Origin: a virus
Lineage: Duplodnaviria; Heunggongvirae; Uroviricota; Caudoviricetes
Reading direction: 5' to 3' (one strand)
IMG/VR virus record: IMGVR_UViG_2693429621_000004
DNA: 17,206 nucleotides
Positions 15,368-17,206 of this stretch are shown here, piece after piece; position 1 is the first letter of the stretch; every line of letters begins with the position of its first letter. The translations under genes were made by a program, and so were the position numbers. The notes under the pieces are model-generated. The model ran no database searches and had not been told where the DNA came from. It saw only the letters and a program-made list of their open reading frames with translations.

Positions 15368-15393
<26 letters not shown>

Positions 15394-15913
15394 TCAGCAA
15401 CCCCGGTATCAGTTCATCCAGCGCGGCTGCTTTGTTCATGGCTTTGATGATATCCCGTTTCAGGAAATCAACATGTCGGTTTTCCAGTTCCGGAAAACGC
15501 CGCTGCACCGACAGGGGGATCCCGTCGAGAATACTGGCAATTTCACCTGCGATCCGCGACAGCACGAAAGTACAGAATGCGGTTTCCACCACTTCAGCGG
15601 AGTCTCTGGCATTTTTCAGCTCCTGTGCGTCGGCCTGCGCACGCGTAAGTCGATGGCGTTCGTACTCAATAGTCCCTGGCTGGAGATCTGTCTCGCTGGC
15701 CTGCCGCAGTTCTTCAACTTCCCGGCGCAGCTTTTCGTTCTCAATTTCAGCATCCCTTTCGGCATACCATCTTATAACGGCGGCAGAGTCATAAAGCACC
15801 TCATTACCCTTGCCACCGCCTCGCAGAACGGGCATTCCCTGTTCCTGCCAGTTCTGAATGGTACGGATACTCGCACCGAAAATGTCAGCCAGCTGCTTTT
15901 TGTTGACTTCCAT
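15368..15913 (-). CDS. Nu1: Terminase small subunit Nu1 (181 aa), with N-terminal winged-helix DNA-binding domain
   Basis: ORF track 15368..15913(-), MEVNKKQLADIFGASIRTIQNWQEQGMPVLRGGGKGNEVLYDSAAVIRWYAERDAEIENEKLRREVEELRQ.... Length equals lambda gpNu1; cosB lies immediately upstream. Confidence 0.95.
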
Positions 15914-15929
15914 TGTTCATTCCACGGAC

Positions 15930-16135
15930 AAAAACAGAGAAAGGAAACGACAGAGGCCAAAAAGCCCGTTTTCAGCACCTGTCGTTTCCTTTCTTTTCAG
16001 GGGGTGTTTTAAATAAAAACATTAGGTTACGGCGAAGAAGAACGGAAACGCCTTAAACCGGAAAATTGTCATAAATAGCGAAAACCCGCGCGCCTTCCGC
16101 CCCGTAACCTGTCGGATCGCCGGAAAGGACCCGCA
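15930..16135 (-). other. cos: cos region: cosB (Nu1-binding R1, R2, R3 repeats), cosN and cosQ-like right-end sequence
   Basis: GAAACG-core repeats match the lambda R-site pattern: agagaaaggaaacgacag at 15936..15953 (R1), gtcgtttcctttc at 15981..15993 (R2, inverted) and aacggaaacgcctt at 16041..16054 (R3). gcgaaaacccgcg at 16078..16090 is the reverse complement of lambda left-end bases 13..25. gtaacctgtcggatcgccggaaaggacccgc at 16104..16134 is the reverse complement of the lambda right end. Confidence 0.85.
16091..16102 (-). other. cosN: Predicted 12-nt cohesive-end core of cosN (phage sense GGGCGGAAGGCG)
   Basis: Positioned by ungapped alignment of conserved flanks to lambda. Lambda has GGGCGGCGACCT here; this window differs at 5 of 12 positions. 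Confidence 0.6.
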
Positions 16136-16301
16136 AAATGATAATAATTATCATCTACATGTCACAACGTGCATCTACGCCATCAAACCACGTCAAATAA
16201 TCAATTATGACGCAGGTATCGTATTAATTGATCTGCATCAACTTAACGTAAAAACAACTTCAGACAATACAAATCAGCGACACTGAATACAGGGCAACCT
16301 C

Positions 16302-16535
16302 ATGTCAACGAAGAACAGAACCCGCAGAACAACAACCCGCAACATCCGCTTTCCTAACCAAATGATTGAACAAATTAACATCGCTCTTGTTCAAAAAGGG
16401 TCCGGGAATTTCTCAGCCTGGGTCATTGAAGCCTGCCGCCGGAGACTGTGCTCAGAAAAAAGAGTTTCGCCTGAAGCAAACAAAGAAAAGAGTGACATTA
16501 CTGAATTGCTCAGAAAACAGGTTAGACCAGATTGA
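16302..16535 (+). CDS. Small hypothetical protein (77 aa) with ribbon-helix-helix-like N-terminal pattern; possibly the lambdoid right-end small ORF family (lambda orf next to cos / E. coli YlcI-like, DUF3950)
   Basis: ORF track 16302..16535(+), MSTKNRTRRTTTRNIRFPNQMIEQINIALVQKGSGNFSAWVIEACRRRL.... It has a basic N-terminal tail, a short beta-strand-like RNIRFP, helix-like NQMIEQINIALVQKG, a G-x-N loop and helix-like AWVIEACRRRL. No strong Shine-Dalgarno; family assignment is from memory only. Confidence 0.55.
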   Translation: MSTKNRTRRTTTRNIRFPNQMIEQINIALVQKGSGNFSAWVIEACRRRLCSEKRVSPEANKEKSDITELLRKQVRPD

Positions 16536-16592
16536 AGCAATTTAGATAATCGTGCAGACTACGCCCCCTCATATCACATGGAAGGTACTACA

Positions 16593-17003
16593 ATGGCTCA
16601 GGTTGCCATTTTTAAACAAATATTCGATAAAGTGCGAAATAATTTAAACTATCACTGGTTTTATTCTGAACTAAAACGTCACAATGTCTCACATTACATT
16701 TACTATTTAGCCACAGAGAATATTCATCTTGTTCTTGAAAACGATAATACGGTTTTAATAAAAGGACAGGGTAAGGTTGTAAATGTAAGATTTTCAAAAA
16801 ATAAATGCCTTATAGAAGCCACCTTAAAAGGATTCAAATCAGGAGAGTTATCATTTTACGAATACAGGAAAAATCTTGCTACAGCAGGGGTTTTCAGATG
16901 GATTACAAATATCCACGAAAACAAAAGGTATTACTATACCTTTGATAATTCATTACTCTTTACTGAGAACATACAGAACACTACACAAATATTTCCGCAC
17001 TAA
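16593..17003 (+). CDS. AT-rich hypothetical protein (136 aa from ATG 16593; 141 aa if ATG 16578 is used); possibly the lambdoid right-end orf family (YbcV/DUF1398-like)
   Basis: ORF track 16578..17003(+). The ATG at 16593 has GGAAGG 7 nt upstream. About 32% GC against about 55-58% in the structural genes. It has two similar half-motifs (..[10 protein letters not shown].. and ..[23 protein letters not shown]..). Family assignment is tentative. Confidence 0.55.
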
Positions 17004-17206
17004 ATCATAACGTCCGGTTTCTTCCGTGCCAGAACCGGACTCGCTGGCATGATGAAATATGTGTACCCGGTAACCCCGGTGTGCATCGTTTTTGATTATT
17101 CCCGCACACTCGCGCAGAAGGAGTTCCCCGTCGGGCTACGGTCTCTGTTAATACGGGAATACGGCGACGATTGGATTTGCCCCTATATTTCCAGACATCT
17201 GTTATC

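Follow-up and report, generated by a model that had tools for sequence, protein, structure and literature searches.

Layout of the locus

We examined two co-oriented genes, gene 1 (ynfO/ylcI type) and gene 2 (ydfO/ybcV type), in a 17 206-nt stretch of DNA (the window) from the Caudoviricetes virus record IMGVR_UViG_2693429621_000004 of IMG/VR. An earlier sequence-only reading of the window had seen in them a cassette of a ribbon-helix-helix (RHH) protein and a larger effector, with the layout of a toxin-antitoxin or defence module. We found that both genes are already known: their products fall into curated families and have identical counterparts among annotated phage proteins. We lean towards viewing them as accessory genes of a lambdoid prophage that are independent of each other and do not form a coupled two-component system.

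The coordinates of the open reading frames (ORFs; Table 1) confirmed that two + strand genes stand 57 bp apart (spacer 16536-16592), and alignment with lambda located cosN beside them, in agreement with the proposed position at a lambdoid right end. The ATG of gene 1 is ~200 bp from cosN and thus equally far from the right end of the virion chromosome; a cosQ-like GGGTCCT is found at ~16128-16134 by the same alignment. Gene 1 is divergent from the gene of Nu1, after which comes gpA, also on the - strand. Every structural gene of the window is on the - strand, so genes 1 and 2 are antisense to the late operon, as had been noted; in PhiR49_1, a nearly identical phage, the S, R and Rz lysis genes continue rightward on the same strand. 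In lambda the late transcript is made from pR'. Given what is established for lambda and the strand layout observed here, the pR' late transcript would cross both genes in antisense.

The earlier remark on the atypical composition of the second gene was correct (GC 0.314 in gene 2, 0.444 in gene 1 and 0.556 in the window), as was that on the weak Shine-Dalgarno sequence of the first, which reads AGGG only. Judging from the GGAAGGT 7 nt before it, ATG 16593 is the likely start of gene 2; this motif is invariant in the alignment of lambda, DLP12, Qin and PhiR49_1.

Table 1. Features of the locus (window positions, except for lambdap79/ybcW, which is given in locus L001)
Feature	Position	Strand	Remark
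ynfO/ylcI-type gene 1	16302..16535	+	77-aa ORF
ydfO/ybcV-type gene 2 (DUF1398)	16593..17003	+	136 aa, internal ATG at 16593
Longer gene 2 ORF	16578..17003	+	141 aa from alternative upstream ATG 16578
Shine-Dalgarno-like GGAAGGT	16580..16586	+	Sequence reading; 7 nt 5' of ATG 16593
PdhR-box-like palindrome AACAGGTTAGACCAGAT	16516..16532		Homology to K-12 gSELEX PdhR sites
Sigma-70 promoter-like TAGACC-16-GATAAT	16523..16550	+	9/12 consensus match only; 5' of gene 2
Inverted repeat ATCAATTATGACG-7-CGTATTAATTGAT	16200..16232		70-100 bp upstream of gene 1; candidate operator
Variable cargo slot	16443..17060		YnfO-type C-terminal tail, spacer, DUF1398 gene; other content in related phages
Conserved 110-nt block	17061..17171	-	Right edge of cargo slot
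cosN 12-nt cohesive end	16091..16102	-	Alignment with lambda, Qin, PhiR49_1, L089
Nu1 terminase small subunit	15368..15913	-	Pfam Phage_Nu1 2.4e-101; first gene of late packaging operon
lambdap79/ybcW	L001 2262-2468	-	Absent from window

Identity and conservation of the genes

Gene 1 is a member of the YlcI/YnfO family; its product matched Pfam PF13132 (DUF3950; 2e-20, 72.8 bits against a cut-off of 25) and NCBIfam NF041551 (YlcI_YnfO_N; 9e-9, 35.2 bits against a cut-off of 30). The protein is 97.4% identical to YnfO from the Qin prophage of Escherichia coli K-12, with equal length and C-terminal tail, and we regard gene 1 as an allele of ynfO with no material difference. Identity is 100% in PhiR49_1, 97.4% in Kati and 87%, over the shared part, with YlcI of DLP12 and the lambda copy. 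The protein is basic, with 17 lysine and arginine against 8 aspartate and glutamate residues. Its residues 1-50 form a conserved core, in which 27 positions are invariant and 15 nearly invariant among 25 homologues, while the C-terminal tail is variable. In comparison of codons 1-50 with alleles of Shiga toxin (Stx) phages, the nonsynonymous divergence (dN) was 0.06-0.09 and the synonymous divergence (dS) 0.7-1.6; a dN/dS of ~0.05-0.09 in the core indicates very strong purifying selection.

The position of the gene is conserved as well. The Qin and DLP12 copies occupy the same place, divergent from nohA/nohD/Nu1, and of 133 loci that could be evaluated, 131 have a member of the gene 1 family head-to-head with packaging genes, which are Nu1 in 101 and HNH plus TerS in 30. 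Here and below, each query contributed its best 80 hits and the resulting sets of loci contain much redundancy; such fractions illustrate a pattern and are not population estimates. Stx2a_WGPS8 and JLK-2012 represent the other packaging system: in these phages the DUF3950 gene is head-to-head with an HNH endonuclease gene followed by TerS and TerL, and no DUF1398 gene comes after it. The gene 1 family is kept at the lysis/packaging junction whichever terminase type adjoins.

Gene 2 is a YdfO-like member of the DUF1398 family. Its product matched the entire profile of Pfam PF07166 (positions 1-119 of 119; 3e-43, 147 bits against a cut-off of 22) and, over residues 1-135, PDB entry 2HH8, the nuclear magnetic resonance (NMR) structure of YdfO (2.9e-67). 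Full-length identity is 75% to YdfO, 77% to YbcV and 76% to lambdap78 of lambda. Gene 2 is a distinct allele which shares with them the upstream block and the Shine-Dalgarno sequence; in PhiR49_1, ev099, Kati and Chlobot the protein is 100% identical. With dN 0.10-0.14 and dS 0.38-0.67 (dN/dS ~0.2-0.35), gene 2 is under purifying selection. The dN/dS values of the two genes rule out chance ORFs.

The DUF1398 family is small in sequence space: 189 clusters at E<=1e-3 were found among 1.84 billion representatives. The near-invariant positions (T41, N43 and the motifs G-V-F-x-W and Y-Y-x-x-D-N) do not suggest a catalytic site. A PDB profile search with a diverse DUF1398 alignment returned 2HH8 as the only match, and an AlphaFold2 model of the gene 2 protein from a 25-sequence alignment had a predicted local distance difference test (pLDDT) score of 48, too poor for a fold search. 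The protein has neither a signal peptide nor a hydrophobic segment (maximum Kyte-Doolittle value 0.39 over 19 residues).

Database labels of DUF1398 proteins include 'head protein' (PHROG 413 and RefSeq phage records), 'putative envelope protein', which is the annotation of lambdap78, the DUF1398 gene of lambda, and 'YbcV'. We see no support for the 'envelope' and 'head' labels in view of the missing hydrophobic segment, the antisense orientation to the late operon and the non-essentiality of lambdap78, whose knock-down by CRISPR interference (CRISPRi) gave efficiencies of plating of 1.9 and 1.3 (PMC10695390). We also set aside resistance to oxidative stress upon YdfO overexpression, which PMC4077768 cites from Wang et al. 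2010; the claim is unverified, and ydfO does not occur in the main text of PMC3105296.

Predicted fold of the 77-aa protein

An AlphaFold2 model of the gene 1 protein, built with 25 homologues, had a mean pLDDT of 72, with 86-89 for residues 21-50. It shows an extended N-terminus and helices at residues 19-32, 34-53 and 58-72; the monomer model contains no strand. In an alignment with Arc, T12-R-N-I-R-F-P18 and the adjoining QMIEQINIALVQKG correspond to Q9-F-N-L-R-W-P15 and the adjoining REVLDLVRKVAEENG. In this alignment the motif N14-I15-R16-F17-P18 is placed on N11-L12-R13-W14-P15 of Arc, the DNA-contacting residues Asn11 and Arg13 of Arc fall on Asn14 and Arg16, and, after a shift by +3, the first two predicted helices match Arc helices A and B, helix A exactly. 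A CopG-family RHH protein, 9kkd, was the second-best PDB profile match, in register though weak (E 1.5); hhalign gave a probability of 35% for the 9kkd fragment and 5.7% for Arc.

Judging from the model and these alignments, the gene 1 protein probably has an RHH fold. The RHH assignment made from the letters can be retained as regards the Arc-like motif and the two predicted helices, but a significant fold or profile match was not obtained. Gene 1 resembles Arc and Mnt of P22 in small product size and in an N-terminal N-x-R-aromatic-P strand motif followed by two helices. The map position is alike as well: arc and mnt are in the immI region embedded in the P22 late operon, so that all three genes lie within late-operon territory with transcription from the opposite strand. 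Unlike with Arc and Mnt, no antirepressor gene is present downstream of gene 1, no operator was identified, and there is no significant sequence or fold match to them.

Independent assortment of the two genes

By tblastn, a YlcI-like gene was detected in 155 phage records versus 43 records with a DUF1398-like gene, and Stx-converting phages account for most of the gap. The pairing depends on the type of locus. Among window-type YlcI loci a DUF1398 gene is downstream in 74 of 75, whereas 56 of the 75 loci found by an Stx-type YlcI query have none. In lambda/DLP12-type DUF1398 loci YlcI is upstream with the opposite-strand ybcW in between (60 of 62), and all six prophage loci with the divergent P0454-type DUF1398 (~30% identical) are devoid of YlcI; no YlcI-like ORF was visible in L089 either. 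YnfO alleles that hardly differ have DUF1398 partners with an identity of ~75% in some loci and 95-100% in others.

In Klebsiella pneumoniae, Pseudocitrobacter and another enterobacterium, distant homologues of DUF1398 (30-55% identical) stand alone in the chromosome. The K. pneumoniae gene is flanked by tusA-like and pmp3/gap genes, and in the other two it adjoins aryl-polyene genes; neither phage genes nor a small DNA-binding or RHH gene were seen near these loci. Given the independent assortment, the insertion of ybcW and the lone copies of DUF1398, genes 1 and 2 are probably not a coupled module.

Genes 1 and 2 are in one reading frame, with a single TGA and 19 sense codons in between (16533-16592), and databases contain 'fusion' proteins, e.g. 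a 233-aa cluster with 761 members, that have W at the TGA. We rejected a YnfO-YdfO read-through fusion: the W suggests that genes on short AT-rich contigs were called with genetic code 4, and the upstream frame is not conserved in lambda.

Candidate control signals

The palindrome AACAGGTTAGACCAGAT shares bases with both the final codons of gene 1 and the -35 element of the promoter-like site of gene 2. In K-12, binding sites of PdhR were located by genomic systematic evolution of ligands by exponential enrichment (gSELEX) at ybcV/ybcW and at ynfO-ydfO (PMC7660256). The core GGTnAGACCAGATTGAA is kept in five of five aligned loci. With 7 occurrences against 3.6 expected, the bare core GGTNNNACC is no rarity by chance, so the assignment as a PdhR box rests on homology. 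In a pdhR mutant the ybcV mRNA was down 10-fold (PMC7660256), and an ionic liquid raised ydfO expression 12- to 116-fold (PMC4077768).

The homology of the DUF1398 region with lambda and DLP12 starts at 16515-16519, ~75 bp before the ATG, and so includes the promoter-like site; this ~75-bp block upstream of gene 2 was conserved in every arrangement aligned. No intrinsic terminator was found downstream of gene 2. Upstream of gene 1, the inverted repeat listed in Table 1 is identical in lambda and Qin.

Cargo slot and its right flank

Homology of the window to WGPS8 and JLK-2012 extends only from 16302 to ~16436-16442 and resumes at 17061-17065 (17061-17171), and the L089 prophage type shares with the window only cos and the 17060-17171 block. 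Since homology with relatives stops and resumes at conserved flanks, we regard 16443-17060 as an exchangeable slot. In lambda and DLP12, ~610 bp carrying ybcW take the place of window positions 16465-16518, which encode the YnfO-type C-terminal tail.

Gene 2 has features of a moron, namely deviant composition (GC 0.314 versus 0.556) and presence or absence between conserved flanks, as seen with WGPS8, JLK-2012 and L089. With the lambdoid morons bor, lom and HK97 gp15 it shares low GC, this presence/absence pattern, a putative upstream control region of its own, orientation opposite to the late genes and, judging from lambdap78, dispensability for lytic growth; it differs from them in that no clear downstream terminator was found.

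The 110-nt block just to the right of gene 2 is 89-92% identical across four lambdoid types with differing cargo (L096 3461-3572, L097 3872-3978, L089 5498-5609 and lambda ~46872-46992). A covariance model of the block matched 83 of 96 sources. On the - strand, that of the late transcript, the block folds into a long stem with 98.1% of cells paired and three pairs with compensatory changes; many C-to-U changes opposite G are tolerated only as - strand G-U pairs and would give mismatches if read on the opposite strand. Nothing in Rfam matched the block, which might act as a structured part of the late mRNA or mark a boundary of recombination.

An accessory-gene reading and its alternatives

In the reading we lean to, the product of gene 1, which is the last gene of the right arm and reads inward from cos, would be a basic DNA-binding protein of small size, Arc/CopG-like and probably dimeric. 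With the late operon silent, gene 1 would be expressed from a promoter or signals of its own, and we infer that the protein acts as a local transcription regulator, through autoregulation and/or control of the downstream cargo. Gene 2 would be AT-rich, exchangeable 'moron' cargo for a soluble cytoplasmic alpha/beta protein, equipped with its own conserved upstream region and a PdhR box. Its homologues in K-12 prophages are transcribed under host control, in a PdhR-dependent and stress-inducible manner; the allele of the window would likewise be expressed in the prophage state, possibly with a physiological benefit, and it would be dispensable for lytic growth as lambdap78 is in lambda.

Several observations weigh against this view. 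The best sigma-70 match upstream of gene 1 is 8/12, and there is no convincing promoter there. Stx-type loci lack the inverted repeat at 16200-16232, so that its role as an operator is speculative; a conserved YlcI operator was rejected for this reason. Structure prediction, named by the sequence-only reading as a check, yielded the two helices of gene 1 at pLDDT 86-89, but Foldseek found no match of the gene 1 model in PDB and BFVD; profile searches of the PDB reached only E ~1, both with the complete alignment and with the 47-residue core of gene 1, and no RHH Pfam profile was found on any of the 25 family members at E<=10. The poor DUF1398 model gave no fold-based clue to biochemistry. Finally, a functional link between the genes may exist in the window/Qin arrangement, given the 74/75 pairing there.

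A type II toxin-antitoxin system, with the RHH protein as antitoxin and autorepressor and DUF1398 as toxin, would account for the order of a small RHH-like gene before a larger one, for the tight linkage in the window/Qin arrangement just mentioned and for the variable tail of gene 1, predicted to be helical (58-72) like the toxin-binding tails of antitoxins. We nevertheless consider it very improbable. Such a pair should form one tightly coupled operon, whereas here we see a 57-bp gap, a Shine-Dalgarno sequence and promoter-like site belonging to gene 2 and, in lambda and DLP12, an opposite-strand gene in between, with a YlcI tail of just 14 residues. Toxin and antitoxin should also co-occur obligately; yet the 'antitoxin' is without DUF1398 in at least 112 phage records, the 'toxin' is alone in many prophages and in the chromosomes of Klebsiella and others, and near-identical YnfO alleles have partner DUF1398 alleles 75% identical to each other. 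No known toxin fold or family was recognized for the effector: against the Pfam toxin families and the PADLOC profiles the best matches of the two genes were HEPN_AbiA_CTD (E 0.014) and Csx23 (E 0.023), both non-significant. YdfO alone was made in quantity for the NMR structure and is therefore, we infer, not strongly toxic. Compared with the RHH antitoxins ParD, RelB, CcdA, MazE6/7 and KacA, gene 1 has a non-obligate partner, which is of no known toxin family and often occurs alone. The proposal of an antitoxin-effector or defence module is not supported by these results.

Antiphage defence or superinfection exclusion, exerted from the lysogen by one gene or by both in the manner of rexAB, sieB or the HK97 gp15 moron, is a further reading that we find improbable. 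It would fit an accessory slot adjoining bor-type lysogenic-conversion genes, antisense orientation to late transcription, cargo differing between related phages, the AT-richness of the DUF1398 gene and the very wide spread of both genes in E. coli prophages. On the other hand, the defence profiles of PADLOC-DB 2.0 gave nothing for gene 1 and only the non-significant Csx23 match for gene 2; the literature searched ties none of ydfO, ybcV, ynfO, ylcI, DUF1398 and DUF3950 to phage resistance; DUF1398 is also a stable lone gene in non-mobile chromosomal contexts; and the reported regulation is metabolic or stress-related, via PdhR (PMC7660256).

The place of gene 1 raises the possibility of a role at the leading end. 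Packaging of lambda DNA finishes with the right end, which is presumably the first to enter the cell. Gene 1 might then be the first gene transcribed after injection, acting in establishment or anti-defence, or YlcI might bind near cos and modulate packaging. The position beside cos or the packaging module, kept in 131 of 133 loci despite two unrelated terminase types, speaks for such a role, as do the very strong purifying selection on the 50-residue core and the lambda coevolution mutations described below, which were flagged as affecting infection efficiency and of which +351 is, by coordinate conversion, within the unannotated ylcI. Still, gene 1 has no evident promoter upstream, in Stx phages an HNH gene and not ylcI is nearest the presumed cos, and the antisense orientation to the late operon runs contrary to a packaging role in lytic growth; we rate this reading as quite unlikely.

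There is also a slim chance that YlcI/YnfO is a universal Arc-like regulator of the first-injected right end in lambdoid genomes of the cos type and DUF1398 a pyruvate/PdhR-responsive lysogenic-conversion factor with a fitness or exclusion phenotype. In this joint reading, transcription of ylcI/ynfO would run inward from the end of the DNA, ahead of the main phage programmes or independently of them, and the protein would control establishment, the cargo slot or late read-through into the packaging genes. Two independent accessory genes remain the reading that we prefer.

Lambda copies, distribution and other observations

The K-12 annotation of Qin has the layout nohA, ynfO, 57-bp gap, ydfO, with the same spacing as in the window. 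The YlcI homologue of lambda is a 64-aa protein encoded at ~48109-48303 on the complementary strand (L001 1903-2097); it is unannotated in the reference record NC_001416. In lambda and DLP12, lambdap79/ybcW is on the opposite strand between the ylcI and DUF1398 genes. These copies differ from gene 1 by the short 14-residue tail of YlcI and by ybcW coming next, instead of the DUF1398 gene directly. No Pfam family was found for lambdap79/ybcW. It was scored 'essential' by CRISPRi, probably owing to a polar block of the late transcript.

A study of lambda-E. coli coevolution listed mutations '+155 to +351 downstream of lambdap79' as intergenic, and mutations in this stretch were flagged as affecting infection efficiency. 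By coordinate conversion, the +351 mutation is a synonymous one in codon 3 of ylcI, whose 3' end is the site of the +155 to +182 cluster; this dense cluster looks like recombination with a host cryptic prophage.

The DNA of the locus is 98-99% identical to that of PhiR49_1, ev099, Kati and Chlobot. By megablast, matching DNA was present in 4800 of 5426 complete E. coli genomes (~88%), at a median of 3 places per genome. Many 'lambda' contigs or records of 3.3-3.6 kb carry genes 1 and 2, and further hits are labelled Staphylococcus aureus, Bacillus, spider (Caerostris) and Campylobacter phage. A 3.6-kb amplicon of the lambda right end serves as a sequencing control, and the odd hosts suggest lambda control DNA contaminating assemblies.

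The cosN of the window, read on the - strand, is GGGCGGAAGGCG versus the canonical GGGCGGCGACCT in lambda, Qin, L089 and PhiR49_1; the last still has the canonical form while being otherwise 99% identical to the window. The five differences are packed into six bases and the flanks are identical. The exact variant was present in 29 viral contigs and is therefore a natural cosN allele.

Significance

The pair is the ynfO-ydfO pair catalogued in K-12, and it is present in lambda itself with ybcW inserted. The locus had been put forward as the most plausible place in the window for an undescribed activity, which overstated its novelty, as these are named K-12 and lambda genes, one with a solved structure. 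The outcome is mainly a clean negative: the pair is not to be scored as a new toxin-antitoxin or defence system. At the same time, genes 1 and 2 are among the few conserved lambda genes without an assigned function, and they occur in ~88% of complete E. coli genomes. As ylcI is absent from the lambda reference annotation, its mutations have been reported as 'intergenic'.

The two genes differ in what they are attached to: ylcI is tied to the lysis/packaging junction, whereas DUF1398 is exchangeable cargo with a site for the host regulator PdhR. Should the joint reading of YlcI as a universal regulator and DUF1398 as a conversion factor be true, for which we see a slim chance, it would provide a function for two of lambda's last unassigned conserved genes.

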